Below, in pieces: positions 11,181 through 28,261 of a stretch of DNA of 64,000 nt (its first letter is position 1; every line of letters starts with the position of its first letter). The stretch lies in the NCBI GenBank assembly GCA_965223265.1, contig OZ244999.1, positions 6,656,001 through 6,720,000 on the forward strand, read 5' to 3'. The DNA comes from Planctomycetota bacterium (GTDB lineage: Bacteria; Planctomycetota; UBA8108; SXIK01). Position numbers and translations under genes: made by a program. Below the pieces are notes generated by a model. That model searched no databases. It had not been told where the DNA came from and was given only the letters and a program-made list of their open reading frames with translations.

Positions 11181-12305
11181 GTGAAGTCTACCCAGCCCAC
11201 CGTTCGTTTCAGGCACGGGCCGCCGCGCCCGAGGGTCGTTCTGACGATTTGCCTCTGTCTTGGTCTTAGTGTCGTCGGGCGCGCCCAAGACGAAGTCGAT
11301 CTGCAGCCGACGCCGGATCCACTTGGCACGACGCTCAAGCTTAAGGATGGCAGCGCGATCCGTGGCCAGATTCTCCAGATGACCGAGAACGATCTGAAGA
11401 TGCAGACGCAGTTTGGCGGCGAGGTGCCCGTCAATTGGTCCGAAGTCAGCCAGATGTTCTCGAAGCTCAAACTGCGCTTGCATCTGCAAGATGACTCGAT
11501 TCTCCACGGCACCGTCGAGGAGGGTGACGAAGACACGATTCACGTGCGCGTCGCCGACACCGACCAGTTGATCCCGGTGAAGCTCTCAGCGGTGAAAGCC
11601 ATCAACCCACCACCGGAGAAAGTCATCACCTACAAGGGCAACATAAACCTCGGTGCGACCATCACCGATGGCAACACCCAGACCAAGGCGGTTGCCGCCA
11701 ACGGCGAGTTTGTGGCGCGCAGCAAACGTCAGCGACTCACACTGCGTGCGGCAACCAACTACGCTGAAGATAGCGACGGCGTCACCGCGCGAAACTCACG
11801 CGGCAGTATCAAGTACGACTTCTTCTTAACGGAAAAGTGGTACCTGTTCGCAGGAGCGCTCTTCGAAGGGGACAGCTTTCAGGACTTAAATCTGCGAACA
11901 GCGCTGAGCGGTGGTGTTGGCTACCAGTTCCTTGACAAGGGCGAACTCGAGCATGCGGCTTTCAAGGGCCTCGAAGGCTATGCCGAAATCGGTTTAGCGT
12001 ACTTCAGTGAAGATTATGACACGACGCCTGACACCCAGTTCGTCTCCGGCAAGTGGGCACTCAAACTCGACTGGGAACTCAAACCAGACCAGATCACCGC
12101 CTTCCACTACCATGAAGGCTACCCTGGCTTCGAAGACCTCGAAGACCTGTACATTCTGACTGAGCAGGGCGTCCGCTTCACGCTGTACGGCAATTTCATC
12201 GCCACGATCCAGGTCAACTGGCGGTGGGACAACACACCCTCCAGCGGCTTCGAGCGTTCCGACACAATCTACCTCATCACGCTCGGCTACAACTTCGATC
12301 TGTAG
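11181..12305 (+). CDS. DUF481/YdiY-like outer-membrane beta-barrel with small N-terminal domains
   Basis: AAGGAG RBS; signal peptide; GNT, KYDFFLT..WY.F, D.FQDL.LR...GG.GYQF, C-terminal LGYNFDL. Confidence 0.85.
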   Translation: MKSTQPTVRFRHGPPRPRVVLTICLCLGLSVVGRAQDEVDLQPTPDPLGTTLKLKDGSAIRGQILQMTENDLKMQTQFGGEVPVNWSEVSQMFSKLKLRLHLQDDSILHGTVEEGDEDTIHVRVADTDQLIPVKLSAVKAINPPPEKVITYKGNINLGATITDGNTQTKAVAANGEFVARSKRQRLTLRAATNYAEDSDGVTARNSRGSIKYDFFLTEKWYLFAGALFEGDSFQDLNLRTALSGGVGYQFLDKGELEHAAFKGLEGYAEIGLAYFSEDYDTTPDTQFVSGKWALKLDWELKPDQITAFHYHEGYPGFEDLEDLYILTEQGVRFTLYGNFIATIQVNWRWDNTPSSGFERSDTIYLITLGYNFDL

Positions 12306-12329
12306 TCCTGAGTTGGCCGCAGCGCTCCC

Positions 12330-12917
12330 TCAAGTCCCCGACACTGGCTTGAGGGAGCACTCCGGCCCCGCCACGGTTTTCCGTGCTGCGATCCCCGCGA
12401 CCATTCGGTTTTCGTAGTCACCCTCGCGCTCCCGGAGAATCTCGAGCGGCGCGACGAGCCGCGGCAGTTCACCGCGCGCAAGCAAGAACCGCGGGTTCTT
12501 CGGGCGTCCTCGTCGGGCTTGCTCAACGGTAAACGTCTCGTAGAGCAGCACGCCGCGGTGCCGAAGAGCACGCATCAGCGCGGAGAAGAGCGGCCTGTGG
12601 AGGTAGTGGAAGACTGCGATGACGTCGTAGACGTCGGAACCAAGATCGACGCCCTCAGCCTCGAGGTCGAACACCCGCGCGGCAATTGGCAAACGCGCAG
12701 CACTCGCGCGCTCGCCGAGACTCCTTATCTTCTCGTTGTCTATGTCGAGCGCGTCGACATGCAAACCGTGCCGAGCGAGAAAAAGCGCGTTGCGGCCGTC
12801 ACCACACGCAATGTCCAGGGCGCGACCCGTCGACGGAAGCAGATCAGCGTTGGAAGTCAACCAATGCGCGGCTACGCCCAGTGACCGAGCCTCGCCGGCA
12901 GAATCCATCTCGCGCAT
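12330..12917 (-). CDS. Class I SAM-dependent methyltransferase (TehB-like)
   Basis: ALDIACGDGRNALFLA..G..V.ALD, YDVIAVFHYL.R, G.LLYETF. Confidence 0.85.
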   Translation of the reverse strand: MREMDSAGEARSLGVAAHWLTSNADLLPSTGRALDIACGDGRNALFLARHGLHVDALDIDNEKIRSLGERASAARLPIAARVFDLEAEGVDLGSDVYDVIAVFHYLHRPLFSALMRALRHRGVLLYETFTVEQARRGRPKNPRFLLARGELPRLVAPLEILREREGDYENRMVAGIAARKTVAGPECSLKPVSGT

Positions 12918-13001
12918 CGGTGGGTTGTCTGTCGTGTGCTATGTGCTAAACGTCGTCTCTACCCGCCCGGTGGCGACGACGCAACGTCGCCACAAAACAC
13001 A

Positions 13002-13703
13002 TCACTCCTCTGGACTCGCAGCATTTCGGCGGGCTTCGATGAACAGCTTTCCGTCCCGGACCTCCACGCGTTCCAGACGACGGAGTATTTCGGCCTGCTC
13101 GGCGTCTTCGTACAGCTTCGCGGCAAGATTCTTTGTTCTCATCTCGGAGAGAAACTCATCAGGCACGACCTTGCCGCCGGCTTCGAGATCCATCAAGCGA
13201 ACGATCAAGCCACCGTTTTCGAGCGACACATCGAACGAGGCTTCTCCGTTGACATAGCGTCCTTCGAGAAAATCAAATTTGACATAGTCGGACGCCAATA
13301 CGCTGATCTTGGCGGTCACTTGACCATCCTTCAGGTCAACGTAAGCCTGGTCTTTGAGTGGTGAATCGGGGTGGCTCTGAATCAACGCGTTCAGTTCATC
13401 GGCGCTCAGTTCCAGGCTATGGACGTCCGACTCCTCGCCTTGTATGGTCGCGTAGAATCTCTCCCATTCGCTGGTGACCCGCTCTACGTCGGCATCAGGT
13501 AGCTCAACCTGCGGCAGCGGGCGGGGCTCAGTCTCAGTGTAGTCAAGCACCATGGACTGAAACTTACGAAAGAGAAAGTAACCGCCGACGCCGATCCCGA
13601 TGCCGATGATCACGAGCGTCAGACAGCCGTAAAAGAAACAGCCGCGCCCCTGTTTTGCCGGCCGGTGGGCCTCCGAGCTCTCGTACGGATCGACACCGCT
13701 CAT
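13002..13703 (-). CDS. Hypothetical membrane-anchored protein
   Basis: N-terminal GCFFYGCL + TM helix; LELSADELNALI; AAGGA RBS. Confidence 0.75.
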   Translation of the reverse strand: MSGVDPYESSEAHRPAKQGRGCFFYGCLTLVIIGIGIGVGGYFLFRKFQSMVLDYTETEPRPLPQVELPDADVERVTSEWERFYATIQGEESDVHSLELSADELNALIQSHPDSPLKDQAYVDLKDGQVTAKISVLASDYVKFDFLEGRYVNGEASFDVSLENGGLIVRLMDLEAGGKVVPDEFLSEMRTKNLAAKLYEDAEQAEILRRLERVEVRDGKLFIEARRNAASPEE

Positions 13704-13900
13704 AAGTCACGCTCATCCTTGTTCAGGCTTGATCATTCCCTCAACACGCATTTCAAATCAACCACAGCATACCCTCGGGACAGGCGGGTGAAAAGAGACG
13801 GTCTCCTGCCTTCATGCCCTCAACGCAGACGTGGCCCCGAGCGTCGCAACAGGTGGCACCACAACGTCAGTGCGGCTACAATCTGCGTTTCGGCTATTGA

Positions 13901-13998
13901 GGGAGTGAACGGGTACCTGGTGGTCCCCCGGGACTTCAAATCCTTGGTGCCGCGCGAACAACGCGGTAGGTGGGTTCGATTCCCATGCACTCCCGCCA
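13901..13998 (+). tRNA. selC: tRNA-Sec (anticodon UCA)
   Basis: GGGAGTG/CACTCCC acceptor + GCCA, extended D stem, CTTCAAA anticodon loop, long variable arm TGCCGCG/CGCGGTA, GTGGG-TTCGATT-CCCAT T arm; 98 nt. Confidence 0.95.
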
Positions 13999-14261
13999 GT
14001 TTTTTCTCCTTGGCATTCCGGCTGCGGACACCTCCTCGGCGCAGCCGCTCCTCACGGCTCCTATTCGTCACGGCTTGACGTAGTCGGCAGCAGGGATATG
14101 CCTTGTCGCCCCGGTCGCGATCGATCGCGATTTTATCAAACGACGCCGATTCACGGGCAGACAGCGACCGAGGTAGCGTTCCCTTTGTTGTGAGCGTTCA
14201 CGGGCTAACCGAACGCTCGGAGCGTCCTTCGGCACTTGTCGTTCACAAGGGGGAAACCGTC

Positions 14262-15146
14262 ATGAAAACAAACTCAGTCGCCAGCAACGATCGCTCGCAG
14301 ACATCTCGGATCCATGAAAGGACCCAACGTGTAACCGCGCTCAGCCTCGCCTTGGTCGCCCTCACCATCGGCGGTGTCATCGGTCGGCCGCTCGACGCAC
14401 AGTTCGATGACATTGCCTACCTGCTGCCGCCATTGCCTAACATCGAGGCGAAATTCGAGCGAGGCGACGCCAACTCCGACGGCGAAACCGACATCGCCGA
14501 TGCTCTTTTCACACTCAACTACCTTTTCACCACCGACAGTCCAGCGCCCAAGTGCTTCGATGCGGCAGATGCGAATGACGATGGTGCGGTCGATATCTCG
14601 GACCCTCTCGCCACGCTTGGATCCCTGTTCGTCGGAGACTTGACGCTACCGCCTCCGGTCGGCGGTTGCGGACTCGACCCGACCCCGGACTCGCTCTTCT
14701 GCGCGCCGCCGAGCCCGTGCTCGTCCGGTGGCTGTGCCGACCTCGAGGTCAGCGGAGTCATCGTCCGAATTCGGGAGTGTCGCGAAGACTCCGCCACGAT
14801 CCGCATCACGGCTGACGTGTTCAACAACGGCAGCGCTGCCTATCGTTCGAGCCCTGGACAGCAGGTCCTCTTCCTTTACGAACTCGTGGCGGGCACGACA
14901 CCACGCGTCGTCGCAGAAGCGGCATTCACCAACCTCAGCGTTGGGGCGAGTGTCGAGGTCGTCTATGAGCGTCTCTGGCCGCTACCCGGCCCCCCACCAA
15001 GCCACTCATACAAGGCCGTGCTTGTTCTTGACCCTGACATCCTGTTCGACGAGAACCCGGAGAACGATCAGTGTCCCGACGCAGGCCCGCCGAGCGCCAG
15101 CATCGGACCCAACGAAATCCACGAAGCCGTCCTGGAGTCCTGTTAG
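14262..15146 (+). CDS. Secreted protein with planctomycete-type dockerin (paired EF-hand) domain and C-terminal Ig/CARDB-like domain
   Basis: FERGDANSDGETDIAD...L.YLF...C.DAADANDDG.VDISD...L..LF...CG.DPT.D.L.C; then ADLEV...ITADVFNNGS. Confidence 0.8.
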   Translation: MKTNSVASNDRSQTSRIHERTQRVTALSLALVALTIGGVIGRPLDAQFDDIAYLLPPLPNIEAKFERGDANSDGETDIADALFTLNYLFTTDSPAPKCFDAADANDDGAVDISDPLATLGSLFVGDLTLPPPVGGCGLDPTPDSLFCAPPSPCSSGGCADLEVSGVIVRIRECREDSATIRITADVFNNGSAAYRSSPGQQVLFLYELVAGTTPRVVAEAAFTNLSVGASVEVVYERLWPLPGPPPSHSYKAVLVLDPDILFDENPENDQCPDAGPPSASIGPNEIHEAVLESC

Positions 15147-15210
15147 ACGACGTCAAGCGAGGTCGACATAAAGAGCAGAGTGCGCCTCGGCGCGCCCTGC
15201 TCTTTCGTGT

Positions 15211-16598
15211 CTACCGACACGTCTCCGTCTCTGACTCCGCCTCTGACCGCATCGCTTGAGTCCATTCGGCAGAATGAACGATCAGTGCGCGAGCCGTCTC
15301 CGGCCAGAGATTCGGGTACTCCGCTTGGACGATTGCCGCGAGCCGAGCCGCCTGCGCTGTCGCCGCGCTGGTCGCCCACATCTCGGTCCAGAGCCGTGAA
15401 GCGATTTGATGACTCGTCGAGATCAAACAGAGACTTCCGGGGTGCGCGGTCTCCTTCTTCGGCGGAAGTCTTTCGCATCCCATGAGGGATCGTAGACGTG
15501 GGTGTCAGCCGGGGACAAGAACTGGTGGAGTAAGGGGTGCTCCGCGTTGACTCCAGTATCCAACAGACAGACCGCCGGGGCGTCATCGGGCGGCGCAGGT
15601 CCAGTCCGATCGGCGATTGCCCTTGTCAACTCGGACTGCTCTCGCGCACTCATGTCGAGAAACGACTGGGGACTGGGCCGGGCAGATCGCAACTCCGCGA
15701 TGTCACCAACCGAGTCGAGCGCCGATGCGAGCCGGGCTGGAGAACTGTAGGTCAGCAGGACGGTTCGTTCAGGGAACAACAGCGGCGTGTCGAGGCGAAC
15801 TTGAATCCCGACTTGAGCGGCGAACTCACGGAACCTGTCGAGTTCGTTCCCCGACTCCGAGTCGCGGCAGAGCCACACTTCCCACCAGATCTCCTGCTCC
15901 GTCGCTGGGAAGCTGCTCGGGTCGTCCGTCCAGAGCGATCGAAGATCCGCCTCGCCGACGGTCTCGATCGGCCTGGCCAAATCTTCGTTGGACGGTCGCC
16001 CGGACTTCGTGTCGGTCGTCTGGTAGCGATCGAACTTGTTCAGGAACTGCGTGACTGCCTTCTCCGGCATGAAGACTGCCGCCTTCTCGACGTTGCCTTC
16101 TCGTTTGATCGACAAGACCGTCGCTCCATGGGTACGCAAGCGCTCAACCGGCAACAGTGTGTCGCCAGCCAGAGCAGCGGCCGACATCGTCTTGCCCGTT
16201 CCTGGAGGCCCGACCAACAGCAACTTCCGGCACGGAGCGAGCCCGAACTCTTCCAGCTTGTGACGCTGGCCCAGCTCGGAGAGGACATGGTTGAGCCGGT
16301 CGCGAACGGTCCCTTCCAAAACCATTTCGCCAAGACGAGTCGCGGGGTATGCCACGCTCATCAACCCAGCGAGTTCTCCGCGAGGCTGCGAGATCGGAAC
16401 GGTCTTCTGCGGGGTCGTGGGCGGCCGACCGAGCCGCTCCCTGGCTTGGTCGATCAGTTCCCGAAGCTCTTTGGCGAAACGGCCATGCCCAGATCGGGCC
16501 TCTTGGGCGGCGAGCTGCATCGCGACCGAGAAAAATCGCGCGTCGTCGCCGTCCGCGTGACTCTCCACGAGAGCTTTGATCTGCTTCGCTGTGGCCAT
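15211..16598 (-). pseudogene. Internally deleted AAA-ATPase + S8 serine peptidase pair (IetAS-like)
   Basis: GAGGAGG RBS + MATAKQIKAL...GPPGTGKT, no Walker B; fused in frame to S8 N-part (LWTDD, WWEVWL, VCLLDTGVN..HPLL); catalytic His region missing; ATSAATAQAARLAA...YP.LWPET.RALIVHSAEW in another frame. Confidence 0.85.
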
Positions 16599-16876
16599 CC
16601 GTACCTCCTCCCAAGCGACTTCTGTCATGCTACCTTGTCGGGGATGGTGCCGACAGCGGTTTTGGCCAGTCAGCCAGCGGTGACATGGGTAGCCACGGTT
16701 GCCTCGACGCTGACAAATCACCCGTGCAGTGCTGCCGGTAATCATCGTCGGGCGCAACATGCTCGTTGCGCGCTACGTCGTAACGCATCGTGGTTGAATA
16801 ACCTCCTGCTGGTCGCGTCGAACCCAGTGTGTCCCGTCGGTTCCTTGAGTGCCGTTGAAGAGGTTCGGATCCGGAC

Positions 16877-23920: not shown

Positions 23921-24196
23921 AACGCGGCGCGTCTCCGGGCATTTGAGGAGCTAACTGCTGAGTCCCACAAACTCTGGCTCGTGAGCAGCGACGAGTCTCA
24001 GATTCACTGACCCGGAAACGCCCCGGCATACCCCGCCGAACCGACCGTCCGATCATACCCCGCCTACCCCGCGCCCCCCGTTCGACGCTGCGCCCTGGAC
24101 CTTCGCTCGACTCCTCGCCTCACCTCGAGTAAAGAGGGGAGCGGAGAGACCGGTGTTGGTGCACTTCTCTCCGCAAGTCCCCGTACGGAGAGAGCG

Positions 24197-24865
24197 ATGC
24201 TACCCCATTTGGTCAACGCGATACAGAGCTATGGCGAAGCTGTTCGCCGCCGTGAGATCCAGCCGACCTGTAACCGCTGCCCGAATTGCAGCGGGGAGCC
24301 AGATCGGTTCCGCTACCGCGGTCACCGAGAGCGCGTGTTCCTCGTTATCGTCAGGCGTCTGGTCGAACCTGTCCTGTCGCTTCTGAGTCGCTGGAAGTGT
24401 CCTCTGTGTAAGCGCTCCTTCACGCTCTACCCGCCCTTCGCGCTGCCGGGGAAACGCTACGTTCGCGACTGCGTTTTCGATCACGCTCGGCGCTACCTCC
24501 AGATCGACGAGCTTTCGTATCGCGAAGCCGTCAAGGTCGAACACATGCCCGTCTTCCACGAGGGTGACGACAGGGGAGCGATCGACGAGCGCAGCCTCGC
24601 GCACTCAACACTTCATCGTTGGCTTTCGTTCTTTCGCTCTCTCAACGCCACGCTCCTGGAGGCTCTCCGCCTCATCCGAGAGCGCTCGGCGAGGTCCGAC
24701 ATCTTCCGCAAGGTCTTCGCCGTCCGTCCAGCCAAGTACCGAAGCGAATCACGGCGGGACACTCTCGTCGCGGCACTTCGAGCTCTCTCGATCGACCAGG
24801 TGTTCCGTTCCCTCTTCGGCCGATCGATCTTCCCCGACTTGGCAACCTCCGCAGCCTGGGCGTGA
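24197..24865 (+). CDS. Transposon ORF1: zinc-ribbon + HTH protein (DUF6431-like)
   Basis: CPNC...R.KCPLCKRSFTLYP.FALP.KRY, then HTH-like LAHSTLHRWL. Confidence 0.7.
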   Translation: MLPHLVNAIQSYGEAVRRREIQPTCNRCPNCSGEPDRFRYRGHRERVFLVIVRRLVEPVLSLLSRWKCPLCKRSFTLYPPFALPGKRYVRDCVFDHARRYLQIDELSYREAVKVEHMPVFHEGDDRGAIDERSLAHSTLHRWLSFFRSLNATLLEALRLIRERSARSDIFRKVFAVRPAKYRSESRRDTLVAALRALSIDQVFRSLFGRSIFPDLATSAAWA

Positions 24866-24905
24866 GCGAGAATCACGCCTCGCTCGCCCCATGCGAGGTG
24901 TGATC

Positions 24906-26468
24906 ATGAAAGCGAAAGATCTCGATTGGGCTATCTTCTGGGCGGCTCTTCTCCAGCCCGTCGTCATCGGCGAGGTGCCGGAGGAGGAAGCCGCGCGATT
25001 TCTCCGCGAGCTCGCCAAAGAAGAGCGCATCTTTCCCGACGGATCGCGACGCAAGCCGGCTCTTTCGACCCTGAGGCGGAAGCTTCGCATCTATCGCGAG
25101 GAGGGCTTCGAGGGTCTTGCCCGCAGGCCGCGAAGCGATCGCGGGAAACCGCGTGCCCACGGCAAAGAGCTCGTCGAGAAAGCCGTCGAGCTGAAGCGTG
25201 ATCAGCCACTGCGCTCCCACTTCGCCATCAACAAGTTCCTCCAGGCTCAGCACGGAAAGACCATTCCGCGTTCGACCCTCTTCCGCTACCTCAAGATCGC
25301 CGGCGCGACGCGGCTGAAGCTCGGTGTCGAGAGGAGGAAAGTCCGGAAACGCTGGACTCGTGACTCCACCCATGCCCTCTGGGTCGGCGACTTCGCCGAT
25401 GGACCCTACGTGCTGCACGACGGCGAAGTCGTCCCCACCTTCCTCTGTGTTCTCATCGACTGCTACAGCCGCTCGCTCGTCGAGGGGCGCTACTACCTTC
25501 GGCAAAATCTCGAGGTCTTGATCGACTGCTTGCTGCGGGCGTGGGCCAAGCACGGTGCTTCGGACGAGCTCTATGTCGATCAGGCGAAGGTCTATATCTC
25601 CAAAGCGCTCAAGGCGGCATGCCTTGCCGTTGTCACCCGGCTCATCCATCGCGGCAAGGGCGATCCGCCACCGGGTGGTCTCGTCGAACGACTCATCGAG
25701 ACGATACAGGGCCAGTTCGAGGCCGAGGTCAGAGCCGGCGAGATCCTCACTCTCGACTCGCTCAACGGAAGCTTCGATTCCTGGAAGACCGTGGCCTACC
25801 ACCGCCAGGTCAACACCGAGACCGGCGAAACACCCGAGGCACGAGCCGAGGCCGGCCTCAAACGGCCTATCCGACACGTCGACATTCAGCGCGTCACCGA
25901 GTTCTTCATGTGCCGCGAGACGCGGCGCGTTCACCCGGACTTCTCCGACGTCCAGCTCGATCGCCGCTTCTATCGCGTCGACAAGAGTCTGCGCGGTGAC
26001 AAGGTCGAAGTCCGCTACGATCCCTTCTCCGCGCCCGACACGGTTCTCATCTACTCCAGCAACGAAGAGTACCTCGGAAAGGGCGTCCTTCACGAGCGCG
26101 AAGAGGGCGAGGACGCCGGTGCTCCCGCCCCTCCCGCCAAAGCGAAGCACAACTATCTGGAGCTTCTTCGCCGTGAGCACGACGAGGAGCTCAAGAAGCG
26201 CGCCCAGGGGATCGACTACCGTCGTGTCATCGCCTCTCGCCAGTGGCCCTTCACCGACTTCGCATGCCTTCTCGGCCGGCTCATGGGGCGCAAGGGCGCC
26301 CTCTCGAGCTTCACCGCCGAGGAGCTCGAGGAACTCAAGAAGTTCTACAACCGTACTCCCAGCCTCACCGAAGTCCTCTTGCTGAGGGCCTTCGAGAAGG
26401 CTCCGGAGAAATCCATTCCCTACATCGCCTACGAGCTTCAACGACTCGCAGGCAGAAAGGAGGACTGA
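24906..26468 (+). CDS. Transposon ORF2: DDE transposase (integrase core + Mu-type C-terminal domain)
   Basis: GAGGTG RBS; N-terminal HTH and RSDRG; LWVGD, LYVDQ, G.VER triad; VEVRYDP in C-terminal domain. Confidence 0.9.
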   Translation: MKAKDLDWAIFWAALLQPVVIGEVPEEEAARFLRELAKEERIFPDGSRRKPALSTLRRKLRIYREEGFEGLARRPRSDRGKPRAHGKELVEKAVELKRDQPLRSHFAINKFLQAQHGKTIPRSTLFRYLKIAGATRLKLGVERRKVRKRWTRDSTHALWVGDFADGPYVLHDGEVVPTFLCVLIDCYSRSLVEGRYYLRQNLEVLIDCLLRAWAKHGASDELYVDQAKVYISKALKAACLAVVTRLIHRGKGDPPPGGLVERLIETIQGQFEAEVRAGEILTLDSLNGSFDSWKTVAYHRQVNTETGETPEARAEAGLKRPIRHVDIQRVTEFFMCRETRRVHPDFSDVQLDRRFYRVDKSLRGDKVEVRYDPFSAPDTVLIYSSNEEYLGKGVLHEREEGEDAGAPAPPAKAKHNYLELLRREHDEELKKRAQGIDYRRVIASRQWPFTDFACLLGRLMGRKGALSSFTAEELEELKKFYNRTPSLTEVLLLRAFEKAPEKSIPYIAYELQRLAGRKED

Positions 26469-27259
26469 TGTTCACCACCCATTTCAAGATGACGACGCAG
26501 CCCTTTCTCGAGCGCGCGCCCGTCGAGCAGATTCTTTCCGACGAGCGCATCACCCAGGGACTCGCTCGACTGGAGTACCTCGCCAAGTCGGGCTCGATCG
26601 GCCTGGTGACCGGACTCACCGGGGTGGGGAAGTCGTCTCTGGTGAAGCTCTTCGTGCGCTCGCTGAGCCGCAACCTCTACGACCCGATCTATCTCTCGCT
26701 GACCTACGTCGGGGCAAACGGCATTCTGAAGCTCCTGGTTTCCAGCCTCGGCGAGCAGCCCCGCCGTGGCAAGGAGCGGCTCTTCCTCCAGATCCTGGAT
26801 CGCGTCGGGGCGAACGAGCACACGACAATCCTCGTCATCGATGAAGCGCACCTGCTTCCTTCGGAGTCGCTCACCGATCTGAGACTTCTGGTCAGCTCCG
26901 GACTCGAGGACGGCCCGCCATTGAAGATCCTCCTCAGCGGACAAGAGACCCTGAGAAAGGAGCTTACCCGAGCGCGCCACGCCGATCTCACGCATCGGCT
27001 CAGCGTGCGCTACCACGTGCCGCCGCTCAGCAAGGAGCAGACGGTCGAGTACATCGACTTTCAGATGCGCGCAGCCGGCGCCTCGCAGAAAGTCTTCGAG
27101 CCTGAAGCGAAGTCGCTCATCCACGACTACTCAAGCGGCGTGCCGCGGCGCATCAACAACATCGCCACCGCCTGCCTCATTCAGGCCGCGAGCAAGAACG
27201 TCCAGAAGATCTCCGAGGCGCTCGTCAACGACACCGCCCCCGAGTTCCATCTGCCCTGA
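26468..27259 (+). CDS. Transposon ORF3: ExeA/GspA-type AAA ATPase
   Basis: TGATG coupling to ORF2; HF.M...PF, Walker A GLTGVGKS, Walker B ILVIDEAH, LSGQ..L, S.GVPRRIN. Confidence 0.9.
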   Translation: MFTTHFKMTTQPFLERAPVEQILSDERITQGLARLEYLAKSGSIGLVTGLTGVGKSSLVKLFVRSLSRNLYDPIYLSLTYVGANGILKLLVSSLGEQPRRGKERLFLQILDRVGANEHTTILVIDEAHLLPSESLTDLRLLVSSGLEDGPPLKILLSGQETLRKELTRARHADLTHRLSVRYHVPPLSKEQTVEYIDFQMRAAGASQKVFEPEAKSLIHDYSSGVPRRINNIATACLIQAASKNVQKISEALVNDTAPEFHLP

Positions 27260-27278
27260 GAACGGAGACTGACGCGCC

Positions 27279-27572
27279 ATGTTCCACAAGACCCTGATGC
27301 CTCGAGTCAACGACTTCGCCGAGTATCCTGAGCTCGCCGTTTTGATGACCCTCGCGACGAACCTCGAGATCGCCCTGTTCGCTCTGAACGCCGCGTACCC
27401 CGATCTCGACTTCGACTACACGCAACGCTCCTCCTACACCGAGCAAGACGCCTATCTCGCCGCCTTGGGCGCTCAGCTGCGAGCGCTCCAGATCGTCCTC
27501 GAAGAGTATCTCGAGAGCCTGCAACGAATCCGATATTTGAAGGCGCCGAGCGGTGGAGGTGGCGTCGCATGA
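27279..27572 (+). CDS. Transposon ORF4: small helical hypothetical protein
   Basis: GGAG RBS; 97 aa; coupled to ORF5 by ATGA. Confidence 0.7.
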   Translation: MFHKTLMPRVNDFAEYPELAVLMTLATNLEIALFALNAAYPDLDFDYTQRSSYTEQDAYLAALGAQLRALQIVLEEYLESLQRIRYLKAPSGGGGVA

Positions 27573-27886
27573 CAGGACGATTCTCCGGCAAGCTCCTGCG
27601 GTCGTTGAGAAACGATATACCGATCGCGTGGCTCCTCGATCTGCTCGGCGTCCCCGCGAAAATCTCCGAGGGCTACGTGCGCTTCCTCTGTCCGCGGTGT
27701 CGCGAATTCAACACCGCGACGAAGGCGTCCACCAACCTCGCGCGTTGCTTTCGCTGCGAGACGAACTTCAACCCGATCGACCTGGTCATGATCGTCAAGC
27801 GGCTGAATTTCGTCGACGCCGTCGAGTTCCTCGCCGAGCTCCGCGATCGTCGCGGTGACGCTCGCGCCACGCCTCGCCCTTCGTGA
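27569..27886 (+). CDS. Transposon ORF5: stand-alone primase-type (CHC2-like) zinc-finger protein
   Basis: GGAGG RBS; CPRC...RCFRC...N.IDLV....LNFVDAVEFL parallels the DnaG zinc-binding domain; no TOPRIM domain. Confidence 0.8.
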   Translation: MTGRFSGKLLRSLRNDIPIAWLLDLLGVPAKISEGYVRFLCPRCREFNTATKASTNLARCFRCETNFNPIDLVMIVKRLNFVDAVEFLAELRDRRGDARATPRPS

Positions 27887-28075
27887 TTCCCCGGGTCGTC
27901 GTGCCGTCCGGGACACGACGACCCGCGCCTTCTCGCCTCGCAAATCGCATCTCGCACCCGCGAATCAGCACCATGCCATTTAATCTGGGATTTCCGCGCC
28001 AGATACTGTGGGACTTAGCAGCTAACTAAGCCAGCCATTTCGTCTTGCCGCGAGGCGTTCTCGCCGTCATTTTTT

Positions 28076-28261
28076 TAACAGCCTGCCTGAGAAAGTGCTC
28101 CGAGCCGAAAGCTGGTCTCGTCGCGTCCAGATCGGCCGCGGCAAACGCAGGCAATCTTCGGGCCCTCTTCTTTCGGCTCTGATGGCGAGTAATGACGCGG
28201 CCCGTCTGGGCGTGAAGACGCCAGTTTCTTCGGCCGAATGATTTCTTCAGGCGGGCTGTTG
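28076..28261 (+). repeat. ~185-bp palindromic dispersed repeat, copy 2 of 3
   Basis: TAA-CAGCCTGCCTGAGAAAGT ... ATTTCTTCAGGCGGGCTG-TTG; most diverged copy. Confidence 0.9.

Follow-up and report, generated by a model that had tools for sequence, protein, structure and literature searches.

A widespread, apparently unnamed transposon family that keeps a DDE transposase, an AAA ATPase and two zinc proteins, found in a planctomycete genome

Why would a small transposon keep a stand-alone relative of a primase zinc domain next to its transposition genes? The question is raised by a 4065-base-pair (bp) insertion element in a 64,000-nucleotide stretch of DNA from a bacterium of the Planctomycetota (GCA_965223265.1, contig OZ244999.1, positions 6,656,001 to 6,720,000), which we call the window and whose positions are used below unless a locus is named. 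The element occupies positions 23956-28020 and contains five open reading frames (ORFs), among them the genes for a DDE transposase (ORF2), an AAA ATPase (ORF3) and a zinc protein of 105 amino acids (aa) with the predicted fold of the zinc-binding domain of DnaG (ORF5). The original prediction, made from the letters of the window, had proposed that the extra genes ORF1, ORF4 and ORF5 may be core machinery and that ORF5 could steer insertion to replication forks or priming sites. We found an intact, recently active and cargo-free transposon of the transposase-plus-AAA-ATPase kind, whose relatives share a conserved core of four genes, ORF1, ORF2, ORF3 and ORF5. The two zinc proteins ORF1 and ORF5 are machinery rather than cargo, and ORF4 is not part of the core.

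The boundaries of the element were read from the sequence. It starts with TG at 23956 and ends with CA at 28020; the left junction consists of GCTAAC followed by TGCTGAGTCCCACAAACTCTGG and the right junction of CCAGATACTGTGGGACTTAGCA followed by GCTAAC. The two GCTAAC copies at 23950..23955 and 28021..28026 represent a perfect 6-bp direct repeat, as expected of a target-site duplication. The termini form an imperfect inverted repeat of 22 nucleotides (nt) with 4 mismatches, consisting of TGCTGAGTCCCACAAACTCTGG on the plus strand (23956..23977), which is presumed to be the terminal transposase site, and TGCTAAGTCCCACAGTATCTGG read on the minus strand (27999..28020), and the longest inverted repeat found spans both ends. 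Searching the window's own genome, a single contig of 9.18 Mb, yielded 10 full-length matches of the 4065 bases, of which 8 are identical and 2 are one base off, and all 10 are flanked by a perfect 6-bp duplication, each a different one. The predicted intact TG..CA element with its duplication is thus corroborated by the sequence itself and by ten copies with duplications of their own. In four public sequencing runs, the element was recovered as a separate unitig of exactly 23956-28020 with about 10-38 times the depth of the left flank contig, and the contigs of these runs, which cannot show rare forms, contained no joints, empty sites or circle junctions. Directly to the right of the element, at 28012-28235, short unitigs reach depths of up to about 1460, far above that of the element, indicating some other short, highly repeated sequence at this place.

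The five genes are co-oriented on the plus strand and partly coupled, as had been predicted, with overlaps by ATGA between ORF2 and ORF3 and between ORF4 and ORF5. None of the five ORFs matched a resolvase or TniQ family (Pfam, E<=0.1; NCBIfam likewise) or a TnsA family (Pfam), which agrees with the earlier statement that the element lacks a resolvase and TniQ. Just 3' of ORF5, the sequence contains a GC-rich hairpin with an 11-bp stem and without a T run (27893..27924, plus strand), which was not called by a terminator scan; scanning the element for sigma-70 promoters and terminators was uninformative.

The transposase gene ORF2 (24906..26468, with a GTG at 24897 as a possible alternative start) codes for 520 aa and shows the Pfam domains HTH_32, rve and Mu-transpos_C. 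The latter, a Mu-type barrel (PF09299), was recorded with 32.7 bits, above the cut-off of 21.7, and is accompanied by a conserved C-terminal tail of about 120 aa. Three acidic residues, D162, D225 and E261, are invariant in the family and would make up a DD(35)E triad. The family profile of ORF2 matched TnsB of the type V-K CRISPR-associated transposon ShCAST over the catalytic core and the barrel (E 8.7e-11), which makes this protein the closest solved relative, albeit a distant one. No curated insertion sequence (IS) family model in NCBIfam was reached: the best, that of IS481 (NF033577), gave 104.3 bits versus a cut-off of 224 (E 8e-30, residues 57-313), and the IS21 model NF033546 gave 21.8 bits versus 160. 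By these alignments, ORF2 has an N-terminal half like that of IS481 transposases, a catalytic core like that of TnsB and the Mu-type barrel.

The start of ORF3 (26468..27259, plus strand, 263 aa) overlaps the stop of ORF2, and the gene codes for a MuB/TnsC-like ATPase of the AAA_22 type (64 bits in Pfam) with intact Walker A (GxxGxGKS, residues 49-56) and Walker B (DE, 125-126) motifs. It also matched the ExeA-like model TIGR03015 with 121 bits, below the cut-off of 324.5, and the IstB model NF038214 with 13.3 bits versus 200. A search of solved structures with the single sequence returned nothing; with the family profile, the best match was MuB (8xvb, E 2.5e-6), followed by ShTnsC (1.4e-4) and VchTnsC (2e-4). 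The predicted assignments as a DDE transposase with a Mu-type C-terminus (rve plus Mu-transpos_C) and an ExeA-type AAA ATPase were thus upheld, the latter with a match to the ExeA-like model that stays below its cut-off.

We compared the ends of the element with those of four other family members, covering DNA from about 40% to 61% G+C. The T(G/C)CTAAGTCCCACAAT-type terminus is common to the four others. In the window element and in three of them, a motif scan detected the terminal motif a second time, in direct orientation, at a distance of 26-39 nt from each end. In the window, these degenerate copies are GAGTCTCAGATTCA on the plus strand (23993..24006) and AAATCCCAGATTAA on the minus strand (27980..27993), which are candidate inner transposase sites. 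The scan gave no second copy in the element of D. suflitae, where reading by eye places one at about 28-29. Multiple transposase sites are typical of the ends of Mu and Tn7-like elements. The left end of the window element additionally contains three direct repeats, CATACCCCGCC / TACCCCGCGCC (24027..24075, plus strand), which are missing from the right end and are candidates for ORF1 sites or an operator. In agreement with this asymmetry, a motif (A/T)NCCC(G/A)C is present in 1 to 4 copies in the left 200 nt of all five members and in none of the right ends, and its CCCGC-containing copies at the left end are often paired, 9 bp apart.

The relatives of the element indicate which of its genes belong together. 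A protein search with ORF2 gave 1283 matches at E<=1e-3 from 8000 scored candidates, the best 120 of which are full length with 54-75% identity and mostly lie on contigs of about 4 kb, as is typical of repeated elements after assembly. Scanning a single genome for each species gave 227 candidate stretches, of which 160 were confirmed, and 80 loci were retained, labelled in their records as Planctomycetota, Thermodesulfobacteriota, Chloroflexota, Gammaproteobacteria, Cloacimonadota and others, with a few archaeal bins among them. Several copies are present in at least three of the scanned genomes, and 10-16 copies per genome are often reached. We then located the five window proteins in the 80 loci by tblastn, counting a locus as having room for ORF1 if it extended at least 750 nt upstream and for ORF5 if it contained the full ORF3 plus at least 330 nt downstream. 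The order ORF1-ORF2-ORF3-ORF5 proved to be conserved: ORF1 was found in 73 of 73 loci with room, ORF3 in every locus reaching that far, and ORF5 after ORF3 in 67 of 70 (50 of 53 with three multi-copy genomes collapsed). ORF4 was present in only one of the 70 loci (L013, the closest relative), where it is placed after ORF5. The core thus consists of four genes, and the original prediction, which had named the absence of ORF4 and ORF5 from most related elements as the observation that would speak against it, was right for ORF1 and ORF5 and wrong for ORF4. At the position of ORF5, the loci L016 (3583-3933), L023 (3675-3962) and L044 (3293-3655), which make up one subfamily, contain an unrelated conserved gene for 95-120 aa, and no Pfam family was recorded for the two of these proteins that were scanned.

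More distant relatives of ORF2, with about 31-33% identity, are encoded on Streptomyces plasmids together with DUF6431, DDE and AAA genes. In the window's own genome, we also noted two N-terminal pieces at L011 3265-4763, one ORF2-like with HTH_32 (34% identity) and one ORF3-like (25%), which look like an older, decayed member of the family. One locus, L082, is reversed in our locus table relative to the plus-strand ORF5 recorded at G302:C1:7474863 in the whole-genome search; no conclusion depends on it.

The first core gene, ORF1 (24197..24865, plus strand), codes for a DUF6431-like zinc-ribbon protein of 222 aa with a helical C-terminal part, although its score in Pfam (21 bits) stays below the cut-off of 26.6. 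The family alignment shows two conserved CxxC pairs (C28, C31, C68 and C71), and the DUF6431 protein upstream of a distant Streptomyces relative, which occupies the position of ORF1, also carries the helix-turn-helix domain HTH_23. The latter observation supports the zinc-ribbon/helix-turn-helix protein originally proposed. The structure model was of fair confidence (predicted local distance difference test, pLDDT, of 81), and fold searches gave no significant match to solved structures; the best rows were a herpesvirus helicase-primase (Z 4.4), an unnamed S. pneumoniae protein (Z 3.8), the NrdR zinc ribbon (Z 3.7-3.8) and the ISCth4 transposase (probability 0.41). The most probable role of ORF1 is sequence-specific DNA binding at the left-end repeats, either as an end-specific accessory or as a repressor of the operon.

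The non-core gene ORF4 (27279..27572, plus strand) codes for a small protein of 97 aa of no known family. It had no Pfam or NCBIfam match and no lead in the Atlas (best 0.79), and only three clusters were found in a collection of 5.8 billion proteins, including that of the window. It is a recent, lineage-specific addition. The idea that ORF4 might be the detached C-terminal coiled-coil of longer ORF5-family proteins was dropped, as it was too weak to claim.

The last gene, ORF5 (27569..27886, plus strand), codes for a stand-alone C4 zinc ribbon. It matched Pfam PF01807 (Zn_ribbon_DnaG) with 22.0 bits, just below the cut-off of 24.9, and one of its paralogues passes that cut-off with 27.6 bits. 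The structure model (pLDDT 90) gave the zinc-binding domain of a Bacillus primase (1d0q_A) as top Foldseek match (E 2.8e-4, TM 0.64/0.66 over 91 columns) and the Aquifex primase (2au3) as second, and no TniQ chain was among the 50 rows listed. As judged from this model, ORF5 has the fold of the DnaG zinc-binding domain, and the resemblance noted in the original prediction is supported by the fold match and the sub-threshold PF01807 score. Thirty ORF5-family sequences share the motifs LRxLRN and NFNPID and the four invariant cysteines C41, C44, C60 and C63, and the protein is conserved across phyla with 43-63% identity. A complex prediction for ORF3 with ORF5 (score 0.06, mark 0.32) gave no verdict on binding either way.

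This degree of conservation bears on the suggestion that ORF5 and ORF1 take no part in the chemistry or targeting of transposition and are instead selfish passengers or regulators, for example repressors, immunity factors or anti-defence proteins. The slot after the ATPase gene is indeed variable, as it mostly contains ORF5, an unrelated gene in L016, L023 and L044 and both ORF4 and ORF5 in the lineage of the window, and the repeats upstream of ORF1 could serve as an operator. We nevertheless regard the suggestion as quite improbable: ORF5 is kept across phyla with its cysteines unchanged, and its recurrence in several transposon families and in-frame fusion to transposases (see below) fit a working part better.

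To describe the target choice of the family, we surveyed the duplications of 43 copies in five genomes. Their length was 6 bp in 25 copies, 7 bp in 3 and 5 bp in 1, and 14 copies had none. Twelve of these 14 are from one genome (G132, L154-L169; 12 of its 16 copies), in which flanks pair between different copies in a chain and three copies share one right flank, suggesting that the element drove genome rearrangements there. The lack of a duplication is compatible with recombination between copies and with intramolecular replicative events. The logo built from the 25 duplications of six bases is palindromic, C12-Y18-T17-A18-G12-S19 (counts out of 25); T at position 3 (17 of 25, p 1e-4) and A at position 4 (18 of 25, p 2e-5) stand out, and this weak palindrome CYTAGS is the only target preference detected. 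Insertions hit both genes and the DNA between them: at least 5 of the 10 copies in the window's own genome interrupt stop-to-stop frames (1260, 905, 636, 547 and 411 aa), and because these five lie in long frames, there is no safe attachment site. The origin of this genome is near 7.95 Mb and the terminus near 3.52 Mb, as judged by cumulative GC skew; relative to replication, 7 copies are co-oriented and 3 anti-oriented (p=0.34), and the copies are spread round the chromosome without clustering near the terminus. In a second, rearranged genome with 16 copies, whose noisy skew was derived from 20 sampled 20-kb windows, the ratio was 7:9, giving 14 of 26 for both genomes. With these 10 and 16 copies, and hence at low power, we found no replichore orientation bias and no site-specific or fork targeting.

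These data speak against the part of the original prediction that concerned targeting, namely that ORF5 is a target selector that directs insertion to forks or priming sites via single-stranded DNA of the lagging strand, as TnsE does for Tn7. The attraction of this proposal lies in the fold, since the corresponding primase domain reads template single-stranded DNA, and in the location of ORF5 directly after the ATPase gene, which is the place of TniQ in Tn7-like operons. Neither the orientation nor the distribution of the copies shows the expected signal, one subfamily lives without ORF5, and in IS481 a target palindrome of this type arises from transposase symmetry alone. We therefore consider a fork-directed selector unlikely.

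The same palindrome raises the alternative that the element is simply an IS481-family insertion sequence with passenger genes, moving by copy-out-paste-in via a circular intermediate. IS481 prefers CTAG-type (NCTAGN-like) targets with 6-bp duplications, a preference which needs no extra protein, and both features recur here, along with the best curated IS model of ORF2. According to the accessible part of PMC11406308, the TG..CA ends are shared with the IS481 family as well. Such an assignment is difficult to reconcile with the score of ORF2, which is less than half of the cut-off of the model, with its Mu-type barrel and TnsB match, and with the conservation of ORF3 and its translational coupling to ORF2. 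No circle junction was seen in the contigs, which would miss rare forms anyway. Taken together, we judge the IS481 reading to be rather unlikely.

Relatives of ORF5 also occur in other elements. A profile search recovered 1680 representative proteins with E<=1e-3, of which 478 reach E<=1e-10 and 93 reach E<=1e-30. The 150 top-ranking ones have 96-245 aa with the domain mostly at the N-terminus, and many continue with a low-complexity linker and a short C-terminal coiled-coil-like helix. Atlas clusters of ORF5 look-alikes with about 100 aa, one of them with 1810 members, carry PF01807 in 45-86% of their members. The family is separate from the primases of its hosts, as whole-genome searches gave 53-141 bits for ORF5-family proteins versus 27-45 bits for the genomes' own primases. 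Of 301 sampled genomes of the window's phylum, 8 contain strong matches, as do 3 of 301 of the phylum of Desulfoferrobacter, including the Desulfoferrobacter genome, and the genes are usually present in many copies per genome where they occur.

Several of these genes are located behind ATPase genes of other transposons. In the window's own genome, an ORF5-family gene with 50-65% identity to ORF5 directly follows istB in two decayed IS21-like elements: at L011 9671-11479, a C-terminal IstA fragment (Mu-transpos_C_2) and IstB precede it by a few bases, as does an IstB fragment at L012 7070-7761 on the minus strand. An IS21-like operon on plasmid pHRM2a of the cultured organism Desulforapulum autotrophicum (NC_012109.1, L203, 2865-6525) codes for a KorB/ParB-like protein, a 500-aa helix-turn-helix protein, IstB (163 bits) and a 178-aa zinc protein, which is annotated in RefSeq as "CHC2 zinc finger domain-containing protein". 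In L131 and L127, which belong to a DDE family with only about 27% identity to ORF2, the ORF5-family gene comes after that for the AAA_22 protein; the upstream ORFs of these loci were considered as ORF1-like, which was ruled out by profile comparison. A distinct element of 4411 bp (L200 621-5031, G509:C1; also in G567) with the left end TGCTAACATTC has 16 and 3 matches in two genomes and codes for a Cys-rich 141-aa protein, an ORF5-family protein, a 185-aa protein with weak likeness to a partition protein, a 591-aa protein and an AAA_22 ATPase. The 591-aa protein belongs to no family and detectably resembles neither ORF2 nor the 500-aa protein of Desulforapulum; it is possibly a new transposase. 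A further locus of the window's genome (L011, G000:C1:2462001-2482000, at 11773-16808) contains three consecutive tyrosine recombinase genes (429, 361 and 339 aa), followed by an AAA_25 ATPase with a MarR-like tail and a coupled 94-aa ORF5-family zinc-ribbon gene, and may represent an element of the recombinase-in-trio type that has an ATPase and a zinc module of its own.

The module is also found as part of transposases. In six protein clusters (P0284, P0286-P0290), IS3-type rve transposases carry an in-frame C-terminal ORF5-family domain behind a low-complexity linker; a metagenomic locus of this kind (L204 683-2083) has an orfA-like gene upstream. The fusion implies that the module can work with a DDE transposase lacking a helper ATPase. 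These fusions may be comparable to the targeting domains fused to other integrases, which would be a point in favour of a targeting function. With four kinds of helper ATPase genes preceding the zinc module and with IS3-type transposases fused to it, these loci suggest that it is a portable, recurrent accessory of transposition by DDE transposons.

We consider it likely that the window element is an active, cargo-free member of a family with a four-gene core, working like a small Mu or "TnsBC" transposon with ORF5 as a core accessory. The transposase ORF2 would bind two direct sites at each end and pair the ends, while the ATPase ORF3 would coat or mark the target DNA, activate strand transfer and probably also provide immunity. 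ORF1 probably binds the left-end repeats. Because no TnsA-like nuclease or resolvase was detected, the likeliest mode is a replicative one, with nicking, joining and replication and with host recombination resolving the products, for which we see a slightly better than even chance; copy-out-paste-in in the style of IS481 or IS3 is a possible but clearly less favoured alternative, and cut-and-paste is the least probable of the three. ORF5 would be an accessory of the transposition complex and not a site selector of the TniQ/TnsD type. Most likely it serves as a tether of the complex, either to DNA or to a replication protein of the host, as suggested by the fold, by the variety of transposons that carry the module and by its fused forms in transposases.

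A related proposal places ORF5 after strand transfer, where it would recruit or modulate the host primase and helicase at the fork-like intermediate so that the element is replicated. A shared need for replication would explain the occurrence of the module with TnsBC-like, IS21-like and IS3-like transposases, and the module does occur with several unrelated transposase and ATPase types as well as beside the AAA_25 ATPase, which is DnaB/RecA-like. The missing resolvase and TnsA-like matches and the 10-16 copies reached would suit this proposal as well, and the zinc-binding domain of DnaG is known to act in trans on the polymerase domain of a neighbouring primase. The module itself has neither a polymerase nor a helicase-binding domain, though; many of its members carry nothing but the C-terminal coiled-coil-like helix, and one subfamily lacks it. 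Recruitment of the primase thus appears rather doubtful to us. A broader formulation, in which the module is a portable adaptor linking DDE transposition to the host replication machinery and was acquired on separate occasions by TnsBC-like, IS21-like and IS3-like elements and by at least one unclassified family, would allow either target capture at single-stranded or fork DNA or delivery of primase and helicase to the strand-transfer intermediate. We put it forward tentatively.

Returning to the small Mu-like or TnsBC-like transposon with ORF5 as a core accessory, several points weigh against this interpretation. The DDE triad, the binding sites, the replicative mode and the roles of ORF1 and ORF5 are all features that we infer. 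ORF1 may even be a TnsA-like nuclease, as it has no solved structural relative (best Z 4.4). ORF5 is dispensable or replaceable in one subfamily, because L016, L023 and L044 hold an unrelated gene instead, and its fusion to a transposase is rare, occurring in 1 of 80 loci of that IS3-like family. The 14 of 43 copies without duplication do not tell the mode of transposition, and the orientation test with 10 and 16 copies was of low power, the second genome being noisy and rearranged.

The interest of the family lies in its combination of parts. Regulated target choice is best understood in transposons that pair a DDE transposase with an AAA+ protein, as in Mu, Tn7 with its CRISPR-guided relatives and IS21, and programmable insertion tools are built on such pairs. 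As third components of these systems, TniQ/TnsD, TnsE and CRISPR effectors are known. The family described here, which is abundant in anaerobic sediment bacteria and planctomycetes with 10-16 copies per genome, instead retains a pair of distinct zinc proteins. Of greatest interest as a lead is the primase-zinc-domain module as a recurrent, portable accessory of DDE transposons, since this look-alike recurs in at least five transposon architectures. If it binds DNA or replication proteins, it would represent a new coupling of transposition to the replication of the cell in a compact, testable part, and if the adaptor interpretation is true, it would define a new class of transposon accessory protein beside TniQ, TnsE and IstB. 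Even otherwise, the family merits a name and an entry in the IS catalogue, because it reshapes genomes, as seen from copy flanks that pair across copies in one genome.

Compared with known systems, the family is a variant of the Mu/Tn7 kind, and its general kind is already known from Mu, Tn7-like elements and "TnsBC elements". The original prediction had stated that no described family has this gene set. This stands insofar as ORF2 stays below all curated IS models and no published description of the gene set or family was found in the literature, a search that did not extend to supplements or ISfinder/TnCentral, but the general kind has a name, as far as the accessible text of the source cited next goes; we therefore call the family widespread and apparently unnamed, and "undescribed" only provisionally. 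According to the accessible text of Hsieh et al. (bioRxiv 10.1101/2024.11.13.623437), "TnsBC elements" consist of TnsB and TnsC without TnsA or TniQ, which also applies to the window element in having no TnsA or TniQ match and no cargo. Together with PMC11406308, this text describes some TnsBC elements and minimal IS-like Tn7 relatives as multi-copy like insertion sequences and presumed to be replicative, and PMC11406308 describes Tn5469 as cargo-free with TniQ. Judged by these descriptions in the accessible portions, the window family is set apart by its 6-bp duplications and the lack of a resolvase or TniQ match, and its IS481-like N-terminal half and two zinc proteins are not mentioned there.

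The likeness to Tn7-like elements consists of a TnsB-type transposase and a TnsC-type regulator, both distant, and MuB matches ORF3 better than TnsC does. The window element differs from them by having no TniQ/TnsD match, and its family duplicates 6 bp in 25 of 29 cases, 7 bp in 3 and 5 bp in 1, whereas the target duplications of Tn7-like elements have 5 bp. ORF5 is similar to the Tn7 selectors TniQ/TnsD and TnsE in directly following the ATPase gene and in being a small zinc-binding protein, but the family shows no attachment site and no orientation control, and the fold of ORF5 is that of a primase domain. In the survey of Tn7 target selectors by Faure et al. 2023 (PMC10293859), primase, DnaG and CHC2 do not occur in the main text.

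The relation to phage Mu rests on the Mu-transpos_C barrel of ORF2, on MuB as the best solved match of ORF3 and on near-random targets including genes. In contrast to Mu, the element is not a phage and has only five ORFs in 4065 bp without structural or lysis genes; it has zinc proteins in addition, is only distantly similar to MuA and MuB in its transposase and ATPase, and makes duplications of 6 bp instead of the 5 bp of Mu. Tn552 produces duplications of 6-7 bp. With IS481, the family shares the best curated model, the 6-bp duplication, the CTAG-like palindrome and the TG..CA ends, and it differs in an ORF2 below the cut-off with a Mu-type barrel, in four to five genes instead of one and in a probable dependence on the ATPase. 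IS21 likewise combines a DDE transposase with a dedicated AAA+ helper, and ORF5-family genes follow istB in some IS21-like elements, but ORF2 and ORF3 miss the IS21 and IstB models (21.8 versus 160 and 13.3 versus 200 bits). ORF5 finally resembles the zinc domain of DnaG (PF01807) in fold, zinc-ribbon spacing and weak sequence similarity (22-27.6 bits for ORF5 and its paralogues). It differs from DnaG in standing alone without polymerase or helicase-binding domains, in forming a tight family of its own and in using four cysteines instead of the Cys-His-Cys-Cys pattern, as taken from the name of the DnaG family.

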